A DNA stretch of 64,000 nucleotides, taken from NCBI GenBank assembly GCA_964452935.1, contig CAYVNO010000003.1:18163-82162 (forward strand), written 5' to 3'. Made by a program: the position numbers and the translations under genes. The DNA is from an uncultured Methanosarcinales archaeon. Lineage in GTDB: Archaea > Nanobdellota > Nanobdellia > Woesearchaeales > DSVV01. Below, one piece after another: positions 6,788 to 43,257 of the stretch; position 1 is the first letter of the stretch, and every line of letters begins with the position of its first letter. The notes below the pieces were generated by a model. It was given only the letters and a program-made list of their open reading frames with translations, made no database searches and was not told where the DNA came from.

Positions 6788-7786
6788 TTAAGCCACCTTG
6801 TCAATCCTGCAGACTTTTCCTAACTGTAGATCTGTTCCTACCCAGTGCATAGAAGGGTACATTGTTCCATCAGCACAAACATACAATTCTTCGTGTGAAG
6901 AACACAACTCATCACTCCTTTCATATGCTCCTTCAATCCCTTTTGCAGAACCAATTGCACAAACAGCAGATTTATAGACACGGAAATGTGGTTCCTTCTC
7001 TCCTAAATTTGCAACAACATAAGCATACGTATCATTTATTTCATGAGTTAGTCCACCAACCCTTATTGTAACATTTATCCCTATCTCTTGAGCCACCATT
7101 TTTACTAATCCTATTTTATATAACAATGGATCATCTCTATCGGGTATTTGGTAATAGTGACTTTGTTCTCCCCTATGCAGTTTATATTGTGCTCTTAACG
7201 GATTATTAAATGATAATTGCCAATTTACTCTTTTGTCAAATCCTCTAAGCGTTTCTTCAAGCTCCATCTCATCAATTGGAAAAACAGTAGCATTTGTTGC
7301 AACCTCCACATAATTTCTCCCCCCAAGCGCTGTTAAATAATCTGTTATTGTTACAAGTTTATCAATATCCAATGTTGGTTCTCCCCCACTTACACATATG
7401 TTTCTTGTCCTACGTGCAAACGGATTATCTCCCAATAATTGAGCAAGTTCTGAAGCAAAACCTAGACCCATATATTGGATATCTTCAGATCTGATATGTC
7501 TCCTGTTTGATTCATTAAAACAAGTGTGGCAGGCAACATTACAATTAGGAGTTACCTCTATCGCAATATACTCTCCAGAACGTGTTTTAATTAATGTTGG
7601 ATCTTCAAGAACAAATACTCCGTTTAATGTCTTTCTTTCTCCTAGCGGATCTTGGATTGTTAACTTATCTGTTAGCCTTGTTTTTACTCTATCATATCCA
7701 AAATAGTTCCCATTACGTCCAGGATTTCTTCTCCCTGATTCTGCCTGTCTTTCTAATTGTTCTGGTGTAAATACAGCTGTTAGCAT
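6788..7786 (-). CDS. Radical SAM protein of unknown function (partial SPASM/twitch-like C-terminus)
   Basis: Has the CNVACHTC (CX3CX2C) cluster motif, VSGGEPTL, and a C-terminal LYVCADGTMYPS segment. It sits between thiC and thiL. Confidence 0.7.
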   Translation of the reverse strand: MLTAVFTPEQLERQAESGRRNPGRNGNYFGYDRVKTRLTDKLTIQDPLGERKTLNGVFVLEDPTLIKTRSGEYIAIEVTPNCNVACHTCFNESNRRHIRSEDIQYMGLGFASELAQLLGDNPFARRTRNICVSGGEPTLDIDKLVTITDYLTALGGRNYVEVATNATVFPIDEMELEETLRGFDKRVNWQLSFNNPLRAQYKLHRGEQSHYYQIPDRDDPLLYKIGLVKMVAQEIGINVTIRVGGLTHEINDTYAYVVANLGEKEPHFRVYKSAVCAIGSAKGIEGAYERSDELCSSHEELYVCADGTMYPSMHWVGTDLQLGKVCRIDKVA

Positions 7787-7847
7787 GTTAACAGATAATT
7801 GATTAAGGTTTATAATACATCATGAAATAATTATTCCAAAAAGAATA

Positions 7848-9110
7848 TTAATTTTTCAAATCCCTAATTCTTTTCACAGAACAGAACTCTCCACACATAC
7901 TACAAACATCATCTTCAGGATTGTCCTCTTTTCTCATTTTGATTGCAGTCTCTGGATCAATTGCTAACTTCAACTCATTCTCCCAATCAAGCTTTGCCCT
8001 TAATCTACTTAACTCATCATCTCTTTTACGTCCTAACCCCCGAGCAACATCAGCAGAATGTGCAGCTATTTTTGTACAAACAACTCCTTCTTTAACGTCT
8101 TCAACACTAGGCAATCTCAAATGCTCTGCTCTTGTAACATAACATAAAAAACTTGCTCCATAATAAGCAGCCATTGCTCCACCAATTGCTGACGTAACAT
8201 GATCATAACCAGGTGCAATGTCTGTAACAATTGGTCCTAAAACATAAAACGGTGCAGAATGACAATACTCTTTCTGTAAATCCATATTTTTCTTAATCTG
8301 GTCCATTGGAACATGTCCAGGTCCTTCAATTATCACCTGTACACCTTTCTCCCACGCTCTTAACGTCAACTCTCCTAAAACTTTCAACTCATGAATCTGT
8401 GCTTCATCAGTTGCATCTGCTAAACATCCAGGCCTTAAACCATCTCCAAGACTCAAAGTCATATCATACTTATTACAAACATCCAAAATCCTATCAAAAT
8501 ACTCATAAAGAAAATTCTCTTTATCATTATCCTTCATCCATTTGATTAAATAACTTCCTCCTCGACTAACAACACCACCGATCCTACTATCCAACATAGG
8601 AACACAATCTCTAACAATTCCGCAGTGTATTGTAACAAAATCAACTCCTTGTTCTCCTTGTTCCTCTAAAATCTTCAAAAACTCCTCAATTCCAACATCT
8701 GTTCTATTCTCATAATCAACCATTAACTGATAAATTGGCACAGTACCTAACGGAACATCACTATTTTTAATCATTTCCTCTCTTATCTTATTCAAATCTC
8801 CACCAGTACTCAAATCCATAACAAACTCTGCACCATTTTCAACAGCAACCTTTAACTTCCTCAACTCAGTATTCATACAATTCTTTAGAGGAGAACTACC
8901 AATGTTTGCATTTATTTTAGTCCTCAACAATCTTCCAACACCAAAAACCTTTTTAACAGAGTTCTTATTACACGGAATAACAAGCCTACCTTTTGCAATC
9001 TCTTCTCTAACTACTTCACTATCAATTTCTTCATACCTAGCAACCTCTTCCATCTCTTTAGTAATTATTCCATTCTTAGCTGAAATTAACTGCGTCATTT
9101 TAACACCCAT
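7848..9110 (-). CDS. thiC: Phosphomethylpyrimidine (HMP-P) synthase
   Basis: Strong ThiC-like sequence (GPGHVPM, C-terminal CSMCGEFCS). The likely true start is ATG at 9098, which forms an ATGA overlap with the thiF stop. Confidence 0.95.
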   Translation of the reverse strand: MGVKMTQLISAKNGIITKEMEEVARYEEIDSEVVREEIAKGRLVIPCNKNSVKKVFGVGRLLRTKINANIGSSPLKNCMNTELRKLKVAVENGAEFVMDLSTGGDLNKIREEMIKNSDVPLGTVPIYQLMVDYENRTDVGIEEFLKILEEQGEQGVDFVTIHCGIVRDCVPMLDSRIGGVVSRGGSYLIKWMKDNDKENFLYEYFDRILDVCNKYDMTLSLGDGLRPGCLADATDEAQIHELKVLGELTLRAWEKGVQVIIEGPGHVPMDQIKKNMDLQKEYCHSAPFYVLGPIVTDIAPGYDHVTSAIGGAMAAYYGASFLCYVTRAEHLRLPSVEDVKEGVVCTKIAAHSADVARGLGRKRDDELSRLRAKLDWENELKLAIDPETAIKMRKEDNPEDDVCSMCGEFCSVKRIRDLKN

Positions 9111-27142: not shown

Positions 27143-28291
27143 CTAAATCTTTCCCGATACAATGCAAACCAATTTAAACAATTTACTTTTTAACGACTTC
27201 TTTTTCTTATCAATCTCGTTAAATCTCTTCTCTAACTCCCTGATATGTTTCTTTACATCTGTACTCTTAGATATTAAGTTAAATGCAACAGCTTTTTTTA
27301 TAAGATCATTTAGATCTTTCTTCATATTATTTCTTTCTGATTCTACTTCTTTAATCATATTCTCAATCTTATTCTTTTTATCAAAGAGTTTCTTAAATCT
27401 AGTAATGACCTTATTATAACTGCCAACTTTCACATCTATCTCATTCTGTTTATCAATTATTTTCCCTAAAACCTCTTTTTTAATATCATTTATTTTCTGT
27501 TTATGTTGTTTACTCTCTTCAACTAAAGGATCAAGAGACCCTTTCCTTTTCTCGATAGTATTTTCTATATTTGTTGCTAATTTTTCTAATTTAGTTATAT
27601 GATTTTCACTTACATCTATTTTCTGATCCTCTTTTTTAATAATCTCTTTTAATCCTTCAATCTGTTTGCTAAATTCTACAACCCTTTTCTTTAATTTCTC
27701 TTCATAATCTTTTAATGAGTCTAAATCCTTTCTTTCTTCCAGCAAATGATCTTTCTCTATATTTATTTTATCTAATAAATCAACATATTTTTTTTGCTCA
27801 GAGAAAACCATCTTATCAAAATCGCCCATCTTTTTCTTAAAGAATTCTTGCTGTTGTGATACTCGTTTATCGACATTTCTCTTAAATTTTTCATAGTCTT
27901 CTAGTTTTACTAATTCATCTTTGACCATCTCGATCTCTTTACCTACCTCTTTTTTCAAATCAGAAAACTGCTCTTTTAAATCAGTCAACCCTTTTGTGTC
28001 TTTATCTAATTTATGAATACTGGATTCAATCTTTCTAACAAATGCATCTTTATTACTGTGGAACTCTTTAGTCTTTGTTACTACCTCTTTTTTGGTTAAC
28101 TTTCTTTCAACAAGAAATGTTTTAGATAGATTATAATCAATACTAATAAGTCCTTCTTCTTCAAGAAAATCAGCCCATTCTTCAACAACTACTTTTGAAA
28201 CACCTAGTTTCTTAGCAGCTTCCCCTATTTCTATCTTCTTCTTGTCTTTGATAATGTGAACTAACTTATCAACACCTGTTTCTATCTTCAT
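27143..28291 (-). CDS. Coiled-coil protein with N-terminal winged-helix-like domain (pilus-locus associated)
   Basis: The N-terminus IGEAAKKLGVSKVVVEEWADFLEEEGLISIDY is followed by about 300 aa of K/E-rich heptad-like sequence. Confidence 0.5.
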   Translation of the reverse strand: MKIETGVDKLVHIIKDKKKIEIGEAAKKLGVSKVVVEEWADFLEEEGLISIDYNLSKTFLVERKLTKKEVVTKTKEFHSNKDAFVRKIESSIHKLDKDTKGLTDLKEQFSDLKKEVGKEIEMVKDELVKLEDYEKFKRNVDKRVSQQQEFFKKKMGDFDKMVFSEQKKYVDLLDKINIEKDHLLEERKDLDSLKDYEEKLKKRVVEFSKQIEGLKEIIKKEDQKIDVSENHITKLEKLATNIENTIEKRKGSLDPLVEESKQHKQKINDIKKEVLGKIIDKQNEIDVKVGSYNKVITRFKKLFDKKNKIENMIKEVESERNNMKKDLNDLIKKAVAFNLISKSTDVKKHIRELEKRFNEIDKKKKSLKSKLFKLVCIVSGKI

Positions 28292-28400
28292 CTATTTCCC
28301 ACCTTCCTTTTATAATAGCATTAATCCTATTAATATCTAATAAAATGAATTTTCTACTATTATTTCAACTATTACCATTTATATATCTTTCTATATTATT

Positions 28401-28544
28401 GGCAAAGTCAACTAATGTGTGGTGGCGTCAGCCGTCACCAGGACCAGCGTTTGCAAATGCAAACCTGGTCGACGCTGACGTGGTCGGGGGACGCCCCCTT
28501 TGGGGTGACCCGTAGCCGCCAAACACACTTAACTTGACTTTGCC
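28401..28544. ncRNA. GC-rich long-helix-closed structured element E3
   Basis: GGCAAAGTCAA...TGTGTGGTGGC pairs with GCCGCCAAACACA...TTGACTTTGCC, about 25 bp with bulges. The core contains the nested hairpin GTCAGC(C)GTC..GACCAG..GTTTG-CAAATG-CAAAC..CTGGTC..GACGCTGAC. It also contains competing GGGGG-ACG-CCCCC and CCCC-TTT-GGGG pairings. It is far more GC-rich than its surroundings. Confidence 0.45.
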
Positions 28545-28613
28545 CAGTATATTAACCTAAATAAGAAATACACCAAACAAAACATATCAATAATCACTCA
28601 GAAGGAGCACCCA

Positions 28614-29609
28614 TCAAGGAATTGCAAGATCTCTAACATCATACAGATCTAAATGTGCATCACTATCATTAATCTGGATATCATCTAACTTAAACCAACT
28701 ATATGTGTTATTAATTAAATAACTGGTTGTGTCTTCACAAGAATCATTAAAATAAACAAAATCAACAATACTGCACTCATCTTTTATAACAATCCCATAA
28801 CCTTCAAGACTCTCAAACTCTTGTAAATTGACAAGACTTTCAATTCCGTACGGAGATGGATCAAGTCTTCCTTCTATCCTATACAAATAACTTGGAGAAA
28901 TATTTGAAGCAATAAACAAAGTGTTACTCATATGGTTGATTAAATTACTCATACCATCATCACCTACAACAAAATCAGTAACATTAGCTCGTTGTATTGT
29001 TTTAATTATTCCTCCATTACTATTAACTAAATATAATGGATCTTCAAAATCAGTTATATCTATATTAGAAATGATTGTACTATTCCTCTGCCACTCTGCA
29101 GTCCCTTTTGTATCTGTTATATTCAACATTACATCAATCTCAATAACAATTCTCCAGGGCGTTTCATGCATAACTCTAATATTCAAGATTTCATACTCTA
29201 AATCAATTAGTAATTCTTCTGCCTTTTCTCCTATTCTTTCTATCCATTCATTCATCTCTGCATCATCAATAACATCTACATAATCTCCATCCATTGTTCC
29301 ATTCATAACCAACTCTTCAAATGTACTATTCAAATTTGTTACAAACTCGCCTGTCTCAGTCATCTGTTGCTGTAACCCGAGCAAAGCCCTAAAAGAAGCA
29401 ATATATAATCCTCTCGAAATATCTCTCTCTAAATCTCCAATAAAATTATCAACAGAGTTTACCCTCGCCTCGACAGGTAATCTTTTTTCTTTTAATCTTG
29501 TTTCTGTTTCAATAGTTAAACCATAAATTACAACTGATAATAATATTATGCTGATGATGGTAAACAAAACCGCTTTTTTATTTTTCATTACTCTCATTTT
29601 TATTGCCAC
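28614..29609 (-). CDS. N-terminally membrane-anchored extracellular protein (possible minor pilin-like)
   Basis: Starts KNKKAVLFTIISIILLSVVIYGL. It overlaps the upstream giant gene by 10 nt. Confidence 0.45.
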   Translation of the reverse strand: MAIKMRVMKNKKAVLFTIISIILLSVVIYGLTIETETRLKEKRLPVEARVNSVDNFIGDLERDISRGLYIASFRALLGLQQQMTETGEFVTNLNSTFEELVMNGTMDGDYVDVIDDAEMNEWIERIGEKAEELLIDLEYEILNIRVMHETPWRIVIEIDVMLNITDTKGTAEWQRNSTIISNIDITDFEDPLYLVNSNGGIIKTIQRANVTDFVVGDDGMSNLINHMSNTLFIASNISPSYLYRIEGRLDPSPYGIESLVNLQEFESLEGYGIVIKDECSIVDFVYFNDSCEDTTSYLINNTYSWFKLDDIQINDSDAHLDLYDVRDLAIP

Positions 29610-32600
29610 GCCCTAAACTCAATTACTGATGGCCCCCATAAATAAGGTATTCTCTCGACAGCTAAAGTCTCTATAATTAAATCACTTGACTCAAAGTTCA
29701 AATAAACTCTTCCATCTTGATCAAAATCAAGATAATTAAATAAATTGTATGCAGCTTCATCATATGAATCTGTCGAGTCATAAGATATGCTACTGCTTGT
29801 ATAATTGCATGTTTTGTTCCCAGTATAATTTGTCGGAATTAAAATATTTGTAGTAGAACCGTCATCAAATTCAACTTCCCAACTGCATCCAATCCCTAAC
29901 GGCAAAACAGTGCTATAAGGAAGAGAAATATTCAACAAGTTAATCAACCCAGTGTACATAAATGAATCATTTATTGAACATAAACCGGTGTTTGTTCCAT
30001 TAACACCTAAACTAATTCCTAAATCATTATTCCCTCCAACAAAAACGTCAGGATCAATATTAACAATAAACGGATCCCCTAAATCAGTATAATCAGAACC
30101 AAAACCACTAAGATTAAATATATTATTTGAATTTACCTCTACAAAGTTTGTCCAATATGATCCAGAATAAGATGTAAACTTCGACTCAATTACTCTAACC
30201 TCTTCTGGAATATCAACACTAGGACTACACGAATCAGTAAATGATCTTTCTTCAAAATAAATTGGCATCTCACCATATTCAAGAGTCGTCAAAATCCTGG
30301 AGTAATTCAATAAAATATATGAATCAGAATAAAGTGTGTTTTCACTAAAATTCCCACTAACAGTTATAACTTGTGCTTCTTGCTCGACAAACATATCAAC
30401 CATGCTCTCTGCAATATCTTGATAAATCTCTTGCAAACCACTAACATTATCACTCTGATAAAAATGACTTGAATTATCACAATCAGCAATAGACTGTAAA
30501 GTAGATGTATCTGCACTCGCACTAAACGCAACAGCATAAATACTAATATTATAATTTGTATGGGCATAACATGCAAAATCAATAGCCTCTTGTTTTGAAT
30601 TACTTGACCCACAACTACCACTCCACCCATTATTATCCATTAAACCGTCATCAGGCCCATGACATCTATTTGCTTCTCCATCACTCATAACAAGCATCGC
30701 CCTTACTCTCCCACTTGAATTTGCTTTCAATTCCAAATCAAACTTCGCACTAGTTGAATCATTATTATACAATTTAACAGCCATAACATTATCTCCTTCA
30801 ACAAGATAACTTTTGTTAACAAAAACATCTCTATTCCAATAACTAGCATTATGTACAGTTGTATCATTATCGATTAAATTTCCATTCAAATAAACCTCTG
30901 CTCTGTCGTCAGAATAAACATATAAATCCATATCAGATAACACATCTAAATCCTCAACTTCAAAATGATCTCTGAAATATAAATCTCCTACATTATTTCT
31001 TACAGAAAACAAAATATTATCAAAATAAAAATATCCATACTCCCAATACCAACTTCTATCCAACTTTCCACCAAAATCTAAATAATAATAACCTGGTCCT
31101 TCAATCCATTCTGAAACATCCTGTGAAAAACTATCACTAAAATCATTGTCAGGATTATTTTCTGTATCAATCTCAAAAGTACCATCACTATGTGAATGCC
31201 CACTATCAAGAGTTGAACCTAGATAATGTGTTCCTGAAGTAGGACTTGTCCACCTTCCTTTAATCCAAACCTGATCAGAACTCTCAAAATAAGGATTTCT
31301 TCCATCCCATTCATAATCAAATGAAACTAACGCAACAGCTCCACTACTGATTAAGTCATAAGCCTCTTGAGTGATATTAATTTGTATACCATAAGCAGCA
31401 GAAGTATCATAATAATGAGTACTATATTGCCTCAATCTTCCTGAAACAACACCATCATTCTGTCCATTAGAATAATCATAAATCCCTGTATCCCAATCCC
31501 ATCCGTCGTCCGTATATGCATCTAATGATCCTATAAATGTATTTACACTAGAATTAATTCCTGACGTAAAATCAACTTCTGGAGTTGAACTATCTGCAGC
31601 CATGTCCCATAAATTTAGATAAGTGTTTGTTGTATTAACTTCAGTATCAACACCAGTACCAAAACCTAACACAACACTACCTGCACTCCAATTACTGTCA
31701 TCAAACCCACTCTCTGTCCAATTACTTGGTGGAGAAACATATTGATAATCTGAATTATAAAGCCATGTATCATTTTGTAACTCTACTTGAATTTCTGATA
31801 ATAATAACTGTGTTGCAGAGTAAATTCCACATGAAATACATGTTGCTCCAGTTGCAGAATATCCTTCAATATCATCTTCTAACGCTTCAATATCTGTAGT
31901 TAAAGAAGTATTCTCGTTAGCATAATATGCATAACTTACTAAACCAACCCTATTTCCTGTAACATTTTCAAGAACATTCCTAACAAAATCTTTAGCAACA
32001 CATTTAGCAACACTCATTCTGCTTGTACTATCTTCTTCCAAATCAGCATCATCACAATCTCTTGTATAACCATAATTATTATTATCCATTCTCCACGCCA
32101 TACTTCCACTCTCATCAGTTATAAGTACAGCATCTCCTCTACCTTCTCCTCCAGCAACAACCTGTTGAAATGAAAGATTTTCAAACCCAAGTCTCAAAGG
32201 AAGTGTGCTACCATTTATACTATTATAATCCAAAATTGAAGAAAGATTAGAATTATTTATTGTCGTAGTTACAACACCGCTAGTCCCTCTATCCTCATAA
32301 ACAGTTGTATTCCCTATATTCAAAAAAAGAACATTAGATGTATTACTATTATTAATCTCATAATGTAAATATATTTCCATATTATTTAACTCACCAGGAA
32401 CATACATCGAAGAATACAAGTTAATAATTCCTATAATCCCTGGAAAATAATAATTATGCGAATTAAAATCTCTTGAATATAATTCACTCGTACTATATTC
32501 AATTTTAATAAATCCTCCTCCGATATATGACTCATTTAGTGAACCCTCAAAGTCAACTGTAAAATAATTATCTGTATCAGAAATCAGCGACTCATTACAA

Positions 32601-33334
32601 CTCATTAAATCAAATCTCTCGGCAACAATTGCAGACTCATTAGATGTATTAACATCAATATTCATACAAAAATCTCCGTTAATATAAAAATCAAAATCAG
32701 CTCCAGAATCAATCTCAATCTCTAACTCTTCTATTCCAGTAAATGTAGGCAAATCAATAAATTTTGTAATATTTCCTTCCCCTTCAAAACCACCAAAATA
32801 AATATATTCCACTCTAGATTGTTCGTCCATCTCTGCTAAATAAATTCTAGAACTTGTTCCCCTTATCGGTCTTGCAAGAGCTATCCCACTAATTAAAGAT
32901 TTAGAACTTACTAACTCTTTTGCTTCATCTGAATCAGTTGTATTAAACGAATATATCTCAGACTCTTCAGCAAACATTCTCAAACCCATATTTCTTGGAA
33001 GTATCCCTTCTGTAACATTACTTGCAATTGCTAACGCCATCTCAGTATTATTCTCCGCCCACAAATAACCAATCTGTTCAATAACAGAAATGTTTAATTC
33101 AGTAATTACTCCTTCATTAATTAATTCAATAACATAAGGATTTTTACACTCCCCTATTTTTGTATTTGCAAAATAATTAGTAATGTCTTCTGAGATATAA
33201 GAGACTTGTTTATTGGGTTGTGTTTCAATATAAGTAATCTTTGAGATGATTATTATCCCCATAATTAAAAGTGTAAGACCTAAAATAGCATCAATCGTAA
33301 AAATAAACCCTTTCCTTGATTTATTCATTCCCAT
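29600..33334 (-). CDS. Giant pilin-like surface protein with split von Willebrand A domain (candidate tip adhesin)
   Basis: The N-terminus SRKGFIFTIDAILGLTLLIMGIII is class-III-signal-like. It has the vWA MIDAS motif DAVLITDESGSM and a distal LVMSDGEAN...IYAVAFS, separated by about 365 residues. There are very many N-x-S/T sequons. Confidence 0.75.
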   Translation of the reverse strand: MGMNKSRKGFIFTIDAILGLTLLIMGIIIISKITYIETQPNKQVSYISEDITNYFANTKIGECKNPYVIELINEGVITELNISVIEQIGYLWAENNTEMALAIASNVTEGILPRNMGLRMFAEESEIYSFNTTDSDEAKELVSSKSLISGIALARPIRGTSSRIYLAEMDEQSRVEYIYFGGFEGEGNITKFIDLPTFTGIEELEIEIDSGADFDFYINGDFCMNIDVNTSNESAIVAERFDLMSCNESLISDTDNYFTVDFEGSLNESYIGGGFIKIEYSTSELYSRDFNSHNYYFPGIIGIINLYSSMYVPGELNNMEIYLHYEINNSNTSNVLFLNIGNTTVYEDRGTSGVVTTTINNSNLSSILDYNSINGSTLPLRLGFENLSFQQVVAGGEGRGDAVLITDESGSMAWRMDNNNYGYTRDCDDADLEEDSTSRMSVAKCVAKDFVRNVLENVTGNRVGLVSYAYYANENTSLTTDIEALEDDIEGYSATGATCISCGIYSATQLLLSEIQVELQNDTWLYNSDYQYVSPPSNWTESGFDDSNWSAGSVVLGFGTGVDTEVNTTNTYLNLWDMAADSSTPEVDFTSGINSSVNTFIGSLDAYTDDGWDWDTGIYDYSNGQNDGVVSGRLRQYSTHYYDTSAAYGIQINITQEAYDLISSGAVALVSFDYEWDGRNPYFESSDQVWIKGRWTSPTSGTHYLGSTLDSGHSHSDGTFEIDTENNPDNDFSDSFSQDVSEWIEGPGYYYLDFGGKLDRSWYWEYGYFYFDNILFSVRNNVGDLYFRDHFEVEDLDVLSDMDLYVYSDDRAEVYLNGNLIDNDTTVHNASYWNRDVFVNKSYLVEGDNVMAVKLYNNDSTSAKFDLELKANSSGRVRAMLVMSDGEANRCHGPDDGLMDNNGWSGSCGSSNSKQEAIDFACYAHTNYNISIYAVAFSASADTSTLQSIADCDNSSHFYQSDNVSGLQEIYQDIAESMVDMFVEQEAQVITVSGNFSENTLYSDSYILLNYSRILTTLEYGEMPIYFEERSFTDSCSPSVDIPEEVRVIESKFTSYSGSYWTNFVEVNSNNIFNLSGFGSDYTDLGDPFIVNIDPDVFVGGNNDLGISLGVNGTNTGLCSINDSFMYTGLINLLNISLPYSTVLPLGIGCSWEVEFDDGSTTNILIPTNYTGNKTCNYTSSSISYDSTDSYDEAAYNLFNYLDFDQDGRVYLNFESSDLIIETLAVERIPYLWGPSVIEFRAWQ

Positions 33335-34482
33335 GCATAAACCACCATTGAAATTGGTTCTCCCTTATAATTTACTAATCTTATCATTTTAACAACATTG
33401 TCTCTCTGAACATTTTCCATTGAAATATTTCCTCCGAAATGATTTATCTGCACAAATCTTTCTGAAGCATCATACAGAATATATTGAAAGTCTGTTTCTC
33501 CTCCATTATTAAACTCTGTCTGAAAATTACAAAAATAATAAACAGTACCGTTTCCATACTCCCAGCTAGCAATTGCTGTCTCTCCAGAATTATCATACTC
33601 AGCAAGTATCTGGAAATTACTAGCATTAGGATCTCCAACATAAGAACTATCGACAGCATAACCGTCAGAACAATTCATTGTATCCCCTATCTCAAGATCA
33701 AGATACTGGTCTAACGCAGTAACAGTAACTCCTCCAGTTCCAGAAGACTCTTGACTATGACGAACTCCAAACAAATTAGTTCCACTCTGGAACATCTTAT
33801 CTGAGATAAAAACATTTCCTCCTCCATAAACATAATCTTCAACCTGTTCTTGTTGGTCTGGGGAACCATCAGTTAATTCTGGAGATTCCATTATAATAAA
33901 ATCATAATCACTGATTGTATTAAGATTAGTAACAACAGATGTATTAAATTCGTCAACATTAATGTTAAAGTTGTTATTATCATAATGATTAAATAAGTAA
34001 TTCTGTTTTGTATCTCTATAATAATAAGCTAAATTAAGATCACTGGCATTAGACTCATAATTAACATCACTCTCTCCAATGTAGTAAGTTCCATTAATGT
34101 TTCTCAAATTTCCATTTGTATCAACAAAAAACACAACAAACTCAGATCTAATCCCAAGTAAATTCTTTGCAGAGTCATAATCAGCATTAGCAAAATTCTT
34201 AAATCTACCAACTAACGTCTCATTCAAATAAGAACCATTGCTAACAACCCCTATCTTAATAACATCAACAGCAGTCCAGTTATAGGGAAGACCAGGGGTC
34301 ATTAAAGATTCAACAATAAACTGCGAATCAAGGTAAATGTCATCCATAGCATTTAACTCTTGGTTATTGACATTAGGGAGATAAATAAAATAAATCACTA
34401 TCATAATTGAAAATACAATTACTGCAACAACAAAATCCATATACCATGCCTGCCCTATTTTTCCCTTAATCATATTCATCAC
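33325..34482 (-). CDS. Pilin-like protein (class III signal-like N-terminus), 385 aa
   Basis: Starts IKGKIGQAWYMDFVVAVIVFSIMIVIYF. Operon context supports the call. Confidence 0.55.
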   Translation of the reverse strand: MMNMIKGKIGQAWYMDFVVAVIVFSIMIVIYFIYLPNVNNQELNAMDDIYLDSQFIVESLMTPGLPYNWTAVDVIKIGVVSNGSYLNETLVGRFKNFANADYDSAKNLLGIRSEFVVFFVDTNGNLRNINGTYYIGESDVNYESNASDLNLAYYYRDTKQNYLFNHYDNNNFNINVDEFNTSVVTNLNTISDYDFIIMESPELTDGSPDQQEQVEDYVYGGGNVFISDKMFQSGTNLFGVRHSQESSGTGGVTVTALDQYLDLEIGDTMNCSDGYAVDSSYVGDPNASNFQILAEYDNSGETAIASWEYGNGTVYYFCNFQTEFNNGGETDFQYILYDASERFVQINHFGGNISMENVQRDNVVKMIRLVNYKGEPISMVVYAWE

Positions 34483-35492: not shown

Positions 35493-36506
35493 ATGAAAAA
35501 AAGAATATTGTTTCCAAAGAATAAACAAAAACAATTTTTAGAAAACACAGTATCCAATCTGGATATAACTTGGCAGGATTTAGCAAAAAAAATGGATGTG
35601 AACATAAACACATTCTCTAAAACATATAGATTTGAAAAATCCAGAATACCTGAAAAGATATTTCTAAAATTATGCAGCCTACTCAACGCAGATAGCAAAG
35701 AAATTTTAAAATTATACAATGGGAAGATCACAAATGATGGAAACATTAGGATCAGAAAAGTGTTGGGTGAAACAAGAACAAAAATAAATAATATCAAGAT
35801 AACATTCAGGAATTGTGATGACTCATTAGAAATAAGAAATATAAAATATTCAAATGCTGACAGAGAAAAGAACCTACTTCTTCCTAATAAATTAACTGTT
35901 GAATTAGCAGAGGAGATAGGGATGCATATTGGTGACGGTTACTTGTCCGGGAAGAAGAATGATTACAGATTAAAAGGCAATAAACATGATGAAAAAGAAT
36001 ATTACAACACCCATGTAAGAAATTTATACAAAAAATTATTCAATCTAAACATAAAAATAAAAGAGTATGATTCAACATATGGTTTTGAGGTTTATTCAAA
36101 GGCACTACATGAATTCAAATCAAATGTACTGAAATTGCCAAAGGGAAGAAAATCAGACATAAGGATACCTGAGAAAATTAAAATAAATAATTCTAAAATA
36201 TTGGCTTCTTTTTTGAGAGGATTATTCGATACCGATGGTAATATTTACTTCCAGTCTAGGTATGGTTATAGACATTATTATCCTAGGATATCCGTAGCTC
36301 AAAAATCAGAAAAACTTATAAAAGAAGTGGCATTAATACTCAAAATGTTAGGTTTCAGGCCATCAATATATGTTGGCAAGGAAGCTACGAGCGTTAGCCT
36401 ACATGGATACAATTCCTTGAAACACTTCATGGATATCGTTGGATTCAATAACCCAAAACACTTGAAAAAAGTGAGGAAATGGGAGGAAATGTATCCCAAA
36501 ATTTAA
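35493..36506 (+). CDS. Free-standing double-motif LAGLIDADG-family protein with N-terminal HTH-like region
   Basis: Two LAGLIDADG-type motifs: LAEEIGMHIGDGYLSG and LASFLRGLFDTDGNIYF. It is not inside an intron or intein. Its stop lies 1 nt before the tRNA gene. Confidence 0.7.
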   Translation: MKKRILFPKNKQKQFLENTVSNLDITWQDLAKKMDVNINTFSKTYRFEKSRIPEKIFLKLCSLLNADSKEILKLYNGKITNDGNIRIRKVLGETRTKINNIKITFRNCDDSLEIRNIKYSNADREKNLLLPNKLTVELAEEIGMHIGDGYLSGKKNDYRLKGNKHDEKEYYNTHVRNLYKKLFNLNIKIKEYDSTYGFEVYSKALHEFKSNVLKLPKGRKSDIRIPEKIKINNSKILASFLRGLFDTDGNIYFQSRYGYRHYYPRISVAQKSEKLIKEVALILKMLGFRPSIYVGKEATSVSLHGYNSLKHFMDIVGFNNPKHLKKVRKWEEMYPKI

Positions 36507-38790: not shown

Positions 38791-39360
38791 ATGGCCTTCA
38801 TACGTAAAAAAAAGATTAAAAAAAAAGAGTATGCTTACTTAGTAAAGAACAAATGGACTAAAGTAGGCACCAGACAAAAAGTGCTTGGATACCTGGGAAG
38901 AGTATATAAAATCGACAAAATCAACGACCCAGAATTCCATGAATTTCTACCCAAAACAAGCAAGCCAAAACAGCTAATTACAAACTTAATCAAGTGGGAA
39001 TTACATAAGCACGGATTCAAAGAAATCAGCAGACAAAACATAAACCTAAAGCAATACATGAAACCAAATACATCCTTATCTCCAACATATCAAAAGCTAT
39101 GGATCAAAGATAGGATTACAGCAATACCAGAAAGAGGGGAAATCTCAGTACGTTCTAGACCTTGTGTTTTACACATAAACGATAACCACATGTGTGAACG
39201 CACACTAAAAAAACTATTGAAATTCAAGTCAGACGGAGACCAGGAAGCAGTAGCAGTAGACCTAGCAGAGGCCTTTGTCACAGCAGGAATAAAAATCCCT
39301 CAAGAGAATTTCATAGAGTTATTCCAACAAATATTCAATAAAAAGGAGACTAGAATATGA
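38791..39360 (+). CDS. Hypothetical protein (basic N-terminus KKEYAYLVKNKWTKVGTRQKVLGYLGR)
   Basis: 189-aa ORF with a 4-nt overlap with the next gene. Confidence 0.45.
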   Translation: MAFIRKKKIKKKEYAYLVKNKWTKVGTRQKVLGYLGRVYKIDKINDPEFHEFLPKTSKPKQLITNLIKWELHKHGFKEISRQNINLKQYMKPNTSLSPTYQKLWIKDRITAIPERGEISVRSRPCVLHINDNHMCERTLKKLLKFKSDGDQEAVAVDLAEAFVTAGIKIPQENFIELFQQIFNKKETRI

Positions 39361-39839
39361 TAATCGCAGTAACAGGCACACCGGGAACAGGTAAGACAAC
39401 ACTCTCAAAAAAGCTAGCAAAAGCACTTAATTACACATATTTGGATGTAAATAAGGTAATAGGAGAACACAATCTAAAGGGAGAATACGACCGTTCAAAG
39501 AGGTGTTATATCATAGATATAGATAAGCTAAACAAAGTATTGATTCAGATGATAAAGCAAGCAAATAAAGAAAAAACAAGTATCATTATAGACTCCCATC
39601 TTTCCCATTATCTACCTAAAAAATACATAAACCAATGCATTGTAACAAAGACTGATCTAAAAATCCTAAAAAAGCGTCTAGAAAAAAGAGGATATAACCA
39701 AGCCAAAGTCAGAGAAAATCTAGACTCAGAAATCTTTGATATCTGCCTAAATGAGGCAAAAGAAAACAAACATAAGATTAAGATAGTAATACTAAACAAA
39801 CTCTCTGACACAACCAAATTCTTAGAAAAGTTTATATAA
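39357..39839 (+). CDS. Adenylate kinase-like NTPase (AK6/Fap7 family)
   Basis: Has the P-loop GTPGTGKTT at the N-terminus. Length is 160 aa, typical of the archaeal Fap7-like kinase. Confidence 0.7.
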   Translation: MIIAVTGTPGTGKTTLSKKLAKALNYTYLDVNKVIGEHNLKGEYDRSKRCYIIDIDKLNKVLIQMIKQANKEKTSIIIDSHLSHYLPKKYINQCIVTKTDLKILKKRLEKRGYNQAKVRENLDSEIFDICLNEAKENKHKIKIVILNKLSDTTKFLEKFI

Positions 39840-39863: not shown

Positions 39864-40694
39864 ATGGGGTTTTTTGACATATTCAAACCAAGATCAGAAG
39901 ATCAAGCTATAGCTAAATCTAAACTACATGAGTTAAACAGTAGACTAATGGAGTCATTCTCAGCCATAAAACAAGACATATCTCAACAAGCAGAATGGAT
40001 AGATTATCTTCATAAAAACACCCAAAATATACATAAAAAACACGATTCTCATAAATCTGAAGTAACAGTTAACCTAAATAAACTCAATAAATGGGTCAAA
40101 CATCTTCATTCTTCTTCAAAGAGCCAAACAGAGAATATTGAAGCTTTAGAGACTGCTATGCTCAGAGCATTCGAATTATACAATAAACATATACTAGACT
40201 TACATAAGAAGGTAGAGATGGTTCAGCCACAAGAGGTAGACACAGATAATCTAAAAAGAGAGGTTGTCGCACACATTAAACCACTTATGGAAGCACACCA
40301 AAACGATACTAAACATATACTAAGAAACCATCTAGAAAGACATACAGAGTCATTGATTACATCAAAAATAAAGGACTTCAAACCAAAGGAAGTTATACGT
40401 GAAAAACCAGTAATAACACCTTCTGAGCCTAAGATAGTACATCACTATTCTAACGCTCCATTGTCTAATCCAGAGAAAAAGCTCTTGACAATGCTGTTTA
40501 ATTCATCAGATCCTTTGTCTTATCAACAGGTATCTGACCAAACAGGGCATAGCGTTAACACTGTACGTGTTAATATGAATTTGCTAAAGAAGAAAAACCT
40601 AGTTGAAGAAAACACACTGCCCTCCGGAGTTAAATTATTCAATATTTCTAACAAAGAAAAGATCAAAAAGATGTACAATCTCCAAATGATCTAA
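39864..40694 (+). CDS. Coiled-coil protein with C-terminal winged-helix DNA-binding domain
   Basis: The C-terminus LSNPEKKLLTMLFNSSDPLSYQQVSDQTGHSVNTVRVNMNLLKKKNLV is MarR/wHTH-like. It lies directly upstream of the repeat-rich non-coding region. Confidence 0.55.
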   Translation: MGFFDIFKPRSEDQAIAKSKLHELNSRLMESFSAIKQDISQQAEWIDYLHKNTQNIHKKHDSHKSEVTVNLNKLNKWVKHLHSSSKSQTENIEALETAMLRAFELYNKHILDLHKKVEMVQPQEVDTDNLKREVVAHIKPLMEAHQNDTKHILRNHLERHTESLITSKIKDFKPKEVIREKPVITPSEPKIVHHYSNAPLSNPEKKLLTMLFNSSDPLSYQQVSDQTGHSVNTVRVNMNLLKKKNLVEENTLPSGVKLFNISNKEKIKKMYNLQMI

Positions 40695-40732
40695 CATCTT
40701 GTTCTTTGTTAAAATTCTATTTCATGGTGCAT

Positions 40733-40855
40733 ATGCATTATAATGCATTATAATGCCTCTACAGAGCTTCTACTGCAAGAATTCGCCATATGCATTGGTA
40801 ATATTCATAATGTTTCCAATGTTAGAATGCCAATGCATCCAATGCATTGCAATGC
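40733..40855. repeat. Perfect palindromes ATGCATTATAATGCAT (40733-40748) and GCATTGCAATGC (40844-40855) with flanking partial copies
   Basis: Read directly from the sequence. Related half-sites (AATGCAT, CATTGG, GCATTATAATGG) are scattered through 40733-41025. Confidence 0.7.
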
Positions 40856-41225
40856 CCTAATTACTGTTGTTTCTTTGAGGATCCGACACACACAATCTAT
40901 GTTTTCTCCATATTAACCCTCACTTCCACTTAAATTCGGCATTTTCAGCGCTTTTTGCCTATATTTCTAGGTATAATGCCTCACTTTCAATATACTTTAT
41001 TATTTTTACGCATTATAATGGCCATTAGCAAAAAATGCCTCAAAATAGACCCTCACTTTTGCCAAAAATAAGCTTATTTTTGGCAAATTTCCCTTAAATT
41101 GACCCTCACTTTTGTCCTATTTACACCTATTCAGCCTCTAAAATACACTATTTTCACACCTTTTACCATATTTACACTAAAAATACCTATATTTTTCGTA
41201 AAAATGTCCCTAAAAAAATCTGGTG

Positions 41226-41292
41226 CCCATTGCAATGCATTACAATGCCCATTGCAACGCATTACAATGCATTGCAACGCATTACAATGCCC
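41226..41292. repeat. Tandem repeat, three copies of CATTGCAA(T/C)GCATTACAATGC (period 20-22 nt)
   Basis: The sequence reads cccattgcaatgcattacaatg cccattgcaacgcattacaatg cattgcaacgcattacaatg ccc. Each unit contains the palindromic half-sites seen at 40733-40855. Confidence 0.8.
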
Positions 41293-41525
41293 AATTCAGC
41301 CTAAAAAATCAAGATTTATGCATAATCTCACCAAAATATACACTTCAAAAATCAAGAAAATCAGCCTCAAAAATAGATAAAATAATCCTCCAAAATCAGC
41401 TTCAAAATCCACAAAAAATCAGTTAGTGAGGGATGAAATCTAGTAAAAAATCCGTCAAATACTAAAAATCTCCAAAAAACACTCAAAAACACACCAAAAG
41501 TGAGGCTTTCCAGCGAATTAATTAC

Positions 41526-41572
41526 TTTGCGTCAGCAAATGTCTTATAATGTCGATCTTTAGTCGGCATTAT
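41526..41572. repeat. Two-hairpin module, copy 1
   Basis: TTTGC-GTCA-GCAAA, then ATAATGTCGA-tctttag-TCGGCATTAT (10-bp stem including a T-G pair). ATATATAT follows. Confidence 0.7.
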
Positions 41573-41638
41573 ATATATTTTCATACTTAGCTATATATAA
41601 AAATCTATATTTAACCCTCACTTTTACTTATTTTCATA

Positions 41639-41685
41639 CTTGACGCTAGTCAAGTTTAATAATGTCGATCTTTAGTCGGCCTTAT
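41639..41685. repeat. Two-hairpin module, copy 2
   Basis: CTTGAC-gcta-GTCAAG, then ATAATGTCGA-tctttag-TCGGCCTTAT. TTTATATATA follows. It lies 113 nt from copy 1. Confidence 0.7.
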
Positions 41686-42117
41686 TTATATATAAAATGA
41701 GTATTTCACACATAATTCTCTAAAAATGGGCTTATTTTGACGAAAAATCAGGTAAAAAATACCTATTTCTCACAATTGAATTACTTTCATACATAAAACA
41801 CCCCCTAAAAGTGAGGGATAATTCATAGAGTAAACAATCCACACATAGCATCAGATTATCCAGAAAATCACACTTAAAACTCACTTTTGCCCCAAAATAC
41901 ACTATTTTTCACTAAAAATCACCCAAAAATACACACTTCAGCATCAAAAAACACTATAATCACACTAAAAGTGAGGACTAAACCGCATATTCGCAACTAA
42001 ATCAGCAAAATATCACAATTTCCTATACTCAAAGCCAAAATTAGGCACTCGGAATTTCCCCTTATTTTGCCCATAAAAGAAGTGAGTTTTAGCACATTTT
42101 CATATATGAAATTGACT

Positions 42118-43257
42118 CTAACCCAACACTTCCCTCAAAGCATTAACTACTTCATCTATTTGTTCTTTTGTAATGACCAAAGGAGGCAAAAACCTTATCA
42201 CACTAACTCCTGCAATATTTGCCATCACTCCTCTTTCCATGAGTGCTTTCAAATACTTACTTGGTTTTTCTTTTAATTCAACCCCAATCATTAAACCTTC
42301 TCCCCTTACATCTCTTATTTTATCTGAATCAATCTTTCTCAACTCTTGGATAAAATATTCTCCCATCTCATTAACATGTTCAAGAATATTCTTATCTCTA
42401 ATAAAATCAATCGCTGCAGATGAAGCAGCACATGCAACTGGATTCCCACCAAAAGTTGAGCCATGTAACATTTTTGGAATCTCAACATTCATTGCAACAG
42501 CACCCATTGGAATTCCTCCAGCCATAGACTTTGCCATTGTTATCATATCAGGAACAACCACACCGTCAGAAGCAAAAAACCTTCCAGTTCTACCAAAACC
42601 TGTTTGAACCTCATCGATTATTAGCATAACTCCTTTTTCATCACATAACTCTCTAACCTGTCTGAAATACTCATGATCACCAATAATAATTCCACCTTCG
42701 CCTTGAATAATCTCAAGAATAACTGCAGCAGTATTTTCATCTACATTCTCTTTCAAATCATTTATATCATTATAATTCACAAACTTGAAACCAGGAACTA
42801 GCGGTTCAAACGGCTGTCTATACTTCAACTTATGCGTCGCACTCAACGCTCCCATTGTTCTTCCATGAAATCCTCTTTTAGCAGAAACTATCCCACTCCG
42901 ACCAGTCAAAACTCTAGCAAACTTTATTGCAGCCTCATTTGCTTCTGCGCCAGAATTACAAAGGAAAAATCTACTAAATGAACTAACTTCAGCTAACCTC
43001 TCCAATAATTCAGCCCTTGCGTCATTATAAAAAATCTCAATACAAGTTATTAACTTTCCACACTGTTCTCTAACAGCATTAACAACATACTCATTACAAT
43101 GCCCTAAATTAACACTACCAATTCCTCCAACACAATCAATATATCTTCTTCCCTCTGAATCATAAATATACACTCCTTCCCCACGAACTATAGCTACCTC
43201 TCTTTTAGGGTATACTCCTGAGGTAAATCCTCTCTCAATCTCAATCATATTTCTCAT
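42118..43257 (-). CDS. lysJ: Class III aminotransferase, LysW-gamma-L-lysine / acetylornithine aminotransferase (LysJ/ArgD)
   Basis: Has LIIDEVQTGFGRTG, and the PLP lysine region MAKSMAGG. Length is 379 aa. Operon context supports the call. Confidence 0.9.
   Translation of the reverse strand: MRNMIEIERGFTSGVYPKREVAIVRGEGVYIYDSEGRRYIDCVGGIGSVNLGHCNEYVVNAVREQCGKLITCIEIFYNDARAELLERLAEVSSFSRFFLCNSGAEANEAAIKFARVLTGRSGIVSAKRGFHGRTMGALSATHKLKYRQPFEPLVPGFKFVNYNDINDLKENVDENTAAVILEIIQGEGGIIIGDHEYFRQVRELCDEKGVMLIIDEVQTGFGRTGRFFASDGVVVPDMITMAKSMAGGIPMGAVAMNVEIPKMLHGSTFGGNPVACAASSAAIDFIRDKNILEHVNEMGEYFIQELRKIDSDKIRDVRGEGLMIGVELKEKPSKYLKALMERGVMANIAGVSVIRFLPPLVITKEQIDEVVNALREVLG

Follow-up and report, generated by a model that had tools for sequence, protein, structure and literature searches.

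Twin palindrome arrays beside a coiled-coil winged-helix gene: a candidate chromosomal docking site in uncultured archaea

The organization and segregation of chromosomes are poorly understood in most archaea, especially in uncultured lineages and in DPANN. The locus considered here, namely the intergenic gap at 40695-42117 in a 64-kb stretch of contig CAYVNO010000003.1 from an uncultured archaeon (the whole of this stretch is referred to as the window), together with the adjacent gene for a 276-residue coiled-coil protein with a winged helix-turn-helix (wHTH), recalls several described systems. In the parC-ParR pairs of plasmids R1 and pSK41, as in the tubC-TubR pair of pBtoxis, tandem short repeats lie about one helical turn apart in two blocks, and adjoining them is the gene for a small protein that binds specific DNA sites; the present locus has phased repeats in two blocks and an adjacent wHTH gene. 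TubR is itself a winged-helix protein and is among the structural neighbors returned by Foldseek for the 276-aa protein. The same is true of AspA, the winged-helix component of the archaeal AspA-ParB-ParA system of pNOB8, which binds a palindromic site and spreads from it. On bacterial chromosomes, RacA of Bacillus subtilis combines an N-terminal MerR-type helix-turn-helix (HTH) with 25 dispersed, GC-rich ram sites, while ParB possesses a CTPase fold. Finally, archaeal origins recognized by Orc1/Cdc6 resemble the gap in being long intergenic regions with inverted repeats and AT-rich DNA.

Palindrome arrays, boxes and the adjacent gene

The gap spans 1423 bp without long open reading frames (ORFs) and is bounded by two convergent genes:

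39864-40694, + strand: gene for the 276-aa protein, the stop codon of which is the left edge of the gap
42118-43257, - strand: gene for a class-III aminotransferase, the stop codon of which is the right edge of the gap

A first-pass annotation, made from the sequence alone, had described an ORF-free interval of 1.4 kb at this position. This description was borne out, with 40695-42117 containing only short ORFs, among which tblastn comparison with relatives detected no conserved protein. The tblastn matches of the gap to its relatives were spread over every reading frame of both strands and were confined to the repeat blocks described below; the gap is therefore not coding.

The strongest repeat signal in the gap, and its most conserved repeat, is the palindrome GCATTNNAATGC, which had not been singled out earlier and for which 9 of the 12 window matches lie in the gap, as against 2.9 expected. 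The 12-mer GCATT-RY-AATGC forms two arrays, termed Block A and Block B, with sites placed at multiples of about 10 bp:

40733-40856, no strand: Block A, starting 40 bp past the stop codon of the 276-aa gene and aligning across 7 lineages
40735-40746 and 40745-40756: two overlapping palindromes GCATTATAATGC in Block A
40793-40855: run of CAATG/CATTG half-sites in Block A
40844-40855: palindrome GCATTGCAATGC in Block A
41010-41021, no strand: isolated palindrome GCATTATAATGG
41224-41296, no strand: Block B, five to six GCATT-RY-AATGC palindromes at 10- and 22-bp steps

Block B is about 90% identical to the corresponding block of the relative L001 and likewise aligns across 7 lineages. Tandem Repeats Finder reports it as a tandem repeat (41224-41293, period 22, 3.3 copies), such that the palindromes and the three-copy tandem repeat of the first-pass annotation were both recovered, the latter being Block B itself. 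When the elements of 7 loci were compared with their flanks, CATTNNAATG occurred 50 times in 5.1 kb of elements, as opposed to 0.38 times expected on the basis of 132 kb of flanking sequence. Among 79 palindromes from 12 lineages, neighbors were spaced by 10 bp in 28 instances, by 12 bp in 6, by 19-22 bp in 13, by 30-31 bp in 3 and by 41 bp in 1, and the central dinucleotide was always RY. Clustered and helically phased short repeats of the sort expected of a centromere were thus present, with spacing peaks at 10, 12, ~21 and ~31 bp, and the repeats of the gap occur almost nowhere else in the window.

A second class of repeat, the exact 8-mer CTCACTTT, has eight of its nine window copies in the gap, and 18 copies were found in the elements of 7 loci where 0.65 were expected from the flanks. 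In the case of CCCTCACTTTTG, searched for with at most two mismatches, 7 of the 11 window matches lie in the gap; shuffles gave 4.8 on average and 10 at most. The boxes are distributed as follows:

40980, 41052, 41105, 41617 and 41880, + strand: CTCACTTT boxes, with a degenerate + copy (CTCACTT) at 40919
41497, 41808 and 41968, - strand: CTCACTTT boxes, with a degenerate - copy at 42080
40919-41112, + strand: forward CTCACTTT boxes between Blocks A and B, where relatives have a single copy
41497-41504, - strand: first exact reverse box past Block B, reading AAAGTGAG on the + strand

These positions agree with the arrangement originally noted, with forward copies on the left, reverse copies on the right and both in the center. 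The box at 41497-41504 is the counterpart of the single inverted box of the relatives, and a degenerate copy is found at 41425-41433. Most boxes are preceded, at a distance of 2-9 nt, by an A/T-rich segment, and the sequences flanking the boxes are not conserved.

The protein encoded next to Block A is composed of a long N-terminal coiled coil, a disordered linker and a C-terminal wHTH. In an AlphaFold2 model (mean predicted local distance difference test score, pLDDT, of 74), helices cover residues 11-119 and 127-170 and the wHTH covers residues 201-271, in agreement with the coiled-coil/wHTH neighbor proposed in the first-pass annotation. The protein belongs to no Pfam, NCBIfam or PHROG family, and Foldseek returned generic wHTH folds only, including MarR/ZitR, TubR and pNOB8 AspA. 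A sequence search of the PDB with the family profile yielded coiled-coil noise (keratin, haemagglutinin HA2) and was disregarded. The last ~80 residues are almost invariant across 19 homologs. The motif S-[IV]-N-[TS]-[IV]-R-V-x-M-N and two N-terminal W-x-x-Y-L-H motifs are common to both clades, including the Woesearchaeota branch, and the putative recognition helix is conserved in the close and Woesearchaeota clades alike. An exhaustive profile search of 1.84 billion representatives revealed 234 clusters at E <= 1e-3, of which 46 are at E <= 1e-30. Sampled clusters of the family have a C-terminal wHTH, with weak HTH_24-type matches in 9 of 10, and an N-terminal region matching the coiled-coil part of the profile, with no further domain.

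To compare the gap with its counterparts, loci were collected in three ways. L001, a metagenome-assembled genome labelled Methanosarcinales, was found through the aminotransferase (protein 71% identical); the other 79 loci from that scan of a genome collection correspond to distant bacterial or archaeal aminotransferases and were left out. The other loci were found through homologs of the 276-aa protein, with L094, L166 and L187 coming from a metagenome scan for a DNA pattern of two palindromes within 13-43 nt. Among the matches listed by the latter scan, most were satellites or chance occurrences and only these three were genuine. This yielded 12 close lineages, namely, the window, L001, L089-91, L092, L093, L094, L166, L187 and L224-L227.

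In all 12 close lineages, the gene for the homolog is flanked by a non-coding stretch of ~350-1470 bp containing palindrome arrays. Both blocks are present in 11 of these, the most distant lineage, L187, having one small array, and in the 11 two-block lineages, Block A is nearer than Block B to the wHTH gene. The layout consists of Block A, a 70-110 bp spacer, a + CTCACTTT box, 80-190 bp, Block B, 85-150 bp and a - box; the + box lies between Blocks A and B in 9 of the 11 lineages and the - box past Block B in 8. The repeat blocks alone align between lineages, with the spacers differing in sequence and in length, as expected of binding sites and not of a structured RNA or a coding region. Comparison of the syntenic gap in relatives, as had been proposed when the gap was first described, thus showed its core to be preserved at the DNA level in each of the relatives obtained.

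The pairing of arrays and gene is maintained even though the far flank differs, being occupied by aminotransferase (lysJ), NUDIX or phosphoglucomutase (PGM) genes. It also persists in three lineages, described below, in which insertions of unrelated genes have come to separate the wHTH gene from Block A. In L092 and L227, the wHTH gene alone is inverted and still abuts Block A, which therefore sits at its promoter. More distant homologs are P0164, from locus L228 (a hypothetical protein labelled Candidatus Woesearchaeota archaeon), and P0165, from L229, which is 48% identical to the query that also found P0164. The synteny of these two loci is different, with thyA and DHFR genes upstream in L228 and a DHFR gene in L229. 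At both, a gap filled with AATGCATTATAATGCATTAT arrays follows the homolog gene, and the rest of the locus is free of such arrays. The arrays of L228 and L229 are simpler, being of the AATGCATT type, and are not accompanied by CTCACTTT boxes, indicating the boxes to be clade-specific and the palindromes to be the universal part. In sum, all 14 lineages, the 12 close ones as well as the 2 distant ones, have the wHTH gene beside arrays. Two of the loci, L093 and L226, are different orthologous wHTH-array loci found in one NCBI assembly (GCA_017973895.1), a record that thus probably mixes two related organisms.

These observations suggest that the adjacent coiled-coil winged-helix protein docks on the chromosome at the conserved core, which comprises Block A, the forward box, Block B and the reverse box, a reading to which, based on sequence, a probability of roughly one half is assigned. 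The fallback offered by the first-pass annotation, namely, a cis-acting hub other than an origin, is supported by a core that is conserved as DNA, confined to one locus in all sequence examined and tied to a winged-helix gene. The 276-aa protein would bind the arrays, with dimers of its C-terminal winged helix reading the dyad-symmetric core AATGCATT / GCATT-RY-AATGC. With successive sites being spaced by one turn of the helix (10 bp, or 12, ~21 or ~31 bp), such dimers would stack on one face of the DNA, possibly coating each block cooperatively. The long N-terminal coiled coils might then link the two coated blocks to each other, or the blocks to another structure, such that DNA and protein would form a large complex at just one site on the chromosome. 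Such a complex could serve as an anchor or organizer of the chromosome and not as a start of replication, with the CTCACTTT boxes providing a second, clade-specific class of site for another factor. A further-reaching proposal, which is held to be rather doubtful, is that the twin arrays and the protein represent an unrecognized chromosomal centromere, anchoring or condensin-loading site working without ParA/ParB-type components and found, as a family of ~230 clusters at 50% identity, from a marine clade to DPANN Woesearchaeota.

Several points weigh against docking. The adjacency of gene and arrays is circumstantial, with protein and motif both being nearly invariant and showing no covariation. 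A gene for a partner NTPase (ParA, ParM or TubZ) is missing from the vicinity, where the neighbors specify a TatD nuclease, a small unknown protein, an AAA_18 protein and lysine/arginine biosynthesis enzymes; with the AAA_18 protein being adenylate-kinase-like, the centromere analogy is one without a motor. The count of a single locus is based on 64 kb of this genome and on at most 21 kb per relative, such that arrays far from the homolog gene are possible, the metagenome scan having been judged among the matches listed.

Lineage-specific sequence and the regulatory and mobile-element alternatives

The gap of the window is longer than those of its closest counterparts, with an extra segment, which is listed here along with further features of the gap:

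41058-41087, no strand: perfect 30-bp palindrome TTTGCCAAAAATAAGCTTATTTTTGGCAAA, an instance of an AAAAT-N5/6-ATTTT motif
roughly 41300-42117: extra ~850 bp of the window as compared to relatives such as L001 and L090, where the gap measures ~560 bp
41345-41398, + strand: A-rich tandem repeat of 22 bp, 2.5 copies, specific to the window
41510-42117, no strand: lineage-specific expansion, lacking in L001 and L090
41541-41578, + strand: hairpin module 1, with a 12-bp stem, a 5-nt loop and a T-rich tail (z = -6.7)
41654-41691, + strand: hairpin module 2, 89% identical to module 1

The AAAAT-N5/6-ATTTT motif is enriched within the elements, with 8 occurrences having been observed as compared to 0.23 expected. 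The expansion contains extra boxes (41617 and 41880 on the + strand; 41808, 41968 and 42080 on the - strand), AT-rich tracts, the hairpin modules and palindromes of the AAAAT-N5/6-ATTTT kind. One portion of the expansion represents a degenerate second copy of 41304-41539, the segment just past Block B, with a local alignment score of 100 as against 59.5 +/- 8.3 for shuffled sequences. The extra ~850 bp are thus best explained by local, lineage-specific expansion through duplication. Long versions of the element exist elsewhere as well, as in L226, where it measures 1465 bp.

The duplicated hairpin modules reported in the first-pass annotation were found at the two positions listed. They share an identical 21-nt core, TAATGTCGATCTTTAGTCGGC, present in exactly two copies in the window, and each is followed by a TATA-like A/T-rich sequence; the relatives lack the modules, which could be a terminator or a small element. 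Their assignment as dif sites was considered and dismissed. The XerA/dif system relies on a 28-bp site, usually near the terminus, in which two 11-bp inverted arms (..TATAA / TTATA..) are separated by a 6-bp spacer. In the modules, the arms are 5-15 nt apart and do not fit the Thermococcales consensus WTKDSMTATAA-N6-TTATATSHMAA, and no skew switch is seen.

Duplications and hairpins of this kind, along with a LAGLIDADG ORF 5 kb away, would be compatible with the remnant of a mobile element, be it a decayed integrated plasmid or virus that brought a partition or replication site, or a cluster of repeats resembling miniature inverted-repeat transposable elements. Also in line with such an origin, three lineages have unrelated genes that separate Block A from the wHTH gene (L001 11714-12517, L166 ~7500-8130 and L224 4018-4806), one of them encoding two HTH domains that resemble sigma-70 region 4 or an IS630 transposase. 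These genes are mutually unrelated and were inserted independently at the same spot, which suggests an insertion hot spot. The 267-aa L001 gene adjoining Block A had been taken as a candidate ortholog of the 276-aa gene and was rejected in the absence of BLASTP similarity, the true ortholog being the next gene, P0002.

Nevertheless, a mobile origin is held to be highly improbable. The order of TatD, small protein, AAA_18 kinase, wHTH gene and arrays persists while the wHTH protein drops to ~30% identity; searches of 2.9 million viral contigs and of 72,556 plasmids retrieved no relatives of this protein; neither integrase nor transposase is encoded at the locus in the window; and the element is single-copy in all sequence examined. 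Scanning the viral contigs with two array patterns gave nothing or chance single matches, and PHROG returned no match for proteins P0001 and P0006 and weak matches only (E > 5e-4) for P0019. The element therefore occupies a single syntenic locus and has no homologs in the mobilome searched, a stable chromosomal setting at odds with the decayed integrated element that the first-pass annotation had offered as one alternative.

The main rival to the docking site is a regulatory hub, in which the winged-helix protein would be an ordinary transcription factor and the arrays the operators of its own gene or of non-coding transcripts starting near the CTCACTTT boxes. In L092 and L227, Block A is directly upstream of the gene, beside a TTTATATA box, and in L090 two extra palindromes lie upstream of the gene. 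The fixed orientation of the boxes, which face each other across Block B, and the short A/T-rich segments preceding them likewise count in favor of this rival. On the other hand, the arrays are 3' of the gene, past its stop codon, in about 10 of 14 lineages, and the start of the gene is 25-140 bp from the upstream kinase gene, usually with no palindrome in between. Moreover, the downstream neighbor varies, hence there is no consistent target gene, and the conserved core contains no canonical archaeal TATA box. The unconserved box flanks and the Rfam results count against this rival as well. At the gathering score, the sole match in the window is the archaeal signal recognition particle (SRP) RNA at 2471-2740, while a relaxed scan of the gap produced only artefacts of hairpin (miRNA) models on Block B, far below threshold; a cluster of small RNA genes, as suggested in the first-pass annotation, is conceivable but finds no support. 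A regulator with operator arrays is accordingly considered unlikely, if still deserving of attention. In its favor, this explanation overlaps with a docking site, parC-type sites serving as both operator and centromere.

Strand skew, the replication origin and the gene neighborhood

The first-pass annotation gave most prominence to a replication origin. In such an origin, boxes or arrays on either side of an AT-rich unwinding element would bind an initiator, which could be Orc1/Cdc6 or else the winged-helix protein, serving as an initiator of a non-Orc kind. Inverted copies of a motif around AT-rich DNA in a long intergenic region are indeed present, as is a dedicated DNA-binding gene adjoining the repeats. 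There is also precedent for an initiator of this fold, oriC3 of Sulfolobus employing the winged-helix protein WhiP (PMC5333045).

As a local test for an origin, GC skew was calculated for the + strand at third codon positions and four-fold-degenerate sites of all 55 long ORFs. At four-fold sites, skew was -0.26 (+ genes) and -0.47 (- genes) to the left of the gap, and -0.34 (+ genes) and -0.56 (- genes) to its right. The skew of the gap itself (-0.35) lies within the range of the flanking genes, and AT skew is positive throughout the 64 kb (+0.1 to +0.4). The sign thus does not change across the gap and is independent of gene orientation, and in L001 a single sign is likewise seen across the element; skew in the other, short relative loci was too noisy to be used. 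To the left as well as to the right of the gap, most genes lie on the - strand (38 of 55 overall). The + strand of the gap is, as first described, truly poor in G and rich in A and C (G 10%, C 22%). However, as the same skew is found in genes of both orientations and on both sides, this G-poverty is background, a property of the whole window and not of the gap. Since the sign is unchanged, an active origin or terminus at the gap is hard to reconcile with the data, and the local part of the skew analysis that had been proposed as a check came out negative. The skew of the window is unusually strong for an archaeon. Extending as it does over the whole window, it implies a single, stable direction of replication and matches the pattern expected within one replichore when a genome is strongly skewed. 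In such genomes, a G-poor intergenic region is no evidence of an origin, and four-fold-site skew on both flanks offers a quick local test.

Components of known archaeal origins were sought as well. The origin recognition box (ORB) consensus for Methanomicrobia is TCCA[GC]T[GT]GAAA[CT][AG]A[AT]GGGGT, with TCCA-N-GAAA as the mini-ORB core (PMC4164010, Table 1). The 20-mer had no match in the sequence with up to 3 mismatches, while the 12-mer core had 3 window matches with at most 1 mismatch, i.e., chance level, none of them in the gap; no mini-ORB was found there either. No Orc1/Cdc6, WhiP- or Cdt1-like protein was detected with Pfam and NCBIfam in the scanned window ORFs of at least 110 aa, which comprised most ORFs of that length and all of Orc1/Cdc6 size, about a dozen small ORFs remaining unscanned; this extends to the scanned window the earlier remark that no orc1/cdc6 gene is adjacent. 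The AT-rich tracts between boxes to which the first-pass annotation pointed (for example, 41570-41612) do exist. They lie, however, within the window-specific part that relatives lack, and in all lineages the inverted boxes flank Block B and not an AT-rich tract. With no Orc1/Cdc6, no ORB and no skew switch, and with G-poverty being background, an origin at this site is very improbable.

The window is archaeal, as reflected in its archaeal SRP RNA (Rfam), and its G+C content is ~33%. A comparison of ribosomal protein S9 placed it no more closely than as euryarchaeon-like, and one of the sample accessions was traced to anoxic waters of the Cariaco Basin. The aminotransferase gene closes a series of - strand genes, the products of which contain LysX/LysY/LysZ/LysJ-type domains (ATP-grasp, semialdehyde dehydrogenase, amino-acid kinase and aminotransferase). 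On the other side of the gap, the AAA_18 kinase and wHTH genes are always preceded by a gene for a protein of 166-189 aa (38791-39360 in the window), with homologs at L090 1137-1643, L093 2520-3035 and L224 1991-2491. This protein has no match in Pfam, NCBIfam or the PDB and may be part of the same functional unit as the kinase and wHTH genes. Several samples contain closely matching strains in which the gap is unchanged; these strains, being 99.4-99.5% identical, are too similar for selection on the gap to be measured. Strains L082 and L083 match the present sequence, with the gap in its entirety, along more than 5 kb, apart from 36 substitutions in 120 bp (39617-39737) of the 3' part of the AAA_18 kinase gene, a cluster that looks like a recombination patch. 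Further upstream, a free-standing ORF with a LAGLIDADG homing-endonuclease-like domain (35493-36506) adjoins the TatD gene. Type IV pilus-like ATPase and membrane genes are followed downstream, at 27143-34482, by a run of - strand genes, among which are three large ORFs that belong to no Pfam family and a gene for a 1244-aa von Willebrand-A protein; one unannotated 382-aa ORF of this run gave weak matches to SMC/Rad50-like coiled coils.

Comparison with known systems

A literature search for the palindrome strings returned nothing relevant, and the gap appears to hold a conserved protein-DNA module with no earlier description. An element that is conserved across deep divergence at one locus, together with one dedicated and unannotated DNA-binding protein, is a testable candidate for a role in chromosome organization or segregation. 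At the least, the AATGCATT-type palindrome and the coiled-coil winged-helix family would constitute a new pair for protein-DNA recognition.

In terms of the described systems, Orc1/Cdc6-dependent archaeal origins differ from the locus in that the latter lacks the ORB consensus, has no orc1/cdc6 gene beside it and shows no switch in skew. RacA with ram and ParB with parS may offer a parallel in function, since in both a DNA-binding domain and a long coiled coil act on clustered inverted repeats to anchor or organize a chromosome; in the case of ParB-parS, the cis site moreover adjoins the gene of its binding protein, much as the arrays adjoin the wHTH gene here. No homology was, however, detected between the 276-aa protein and either RacA or ParB. 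AspA, for its part, is a protein of ~90 aa without a coiled coil encoded in an operon with ParB and ParA, neither of which is found here, and its similarity to the 276-aa protein (E about 7e-3) is generic to the wHTH fold.

As to parC-ParR and tubC-TubR, no ParM or TubZ gene is present and the locus is chromosomal and not plasmid-borne. Furthermore, the repeats are dyad-symmetric, whereas those of parC and tubC are direct iterons, and the ~170-aa coiled coil is lacking in ParR and TubR, with which no sequence family is shared. What the likeness to parC and tubC would predict is that the protein coats its array cooperatively and that the site can act as both operator and centromere. The closest working analogy would seem to be a plasmid centromere/operator array of the ParR-parC, TubR-tubC or AspA kind, of which the present locus would be a counterpart and not a member.

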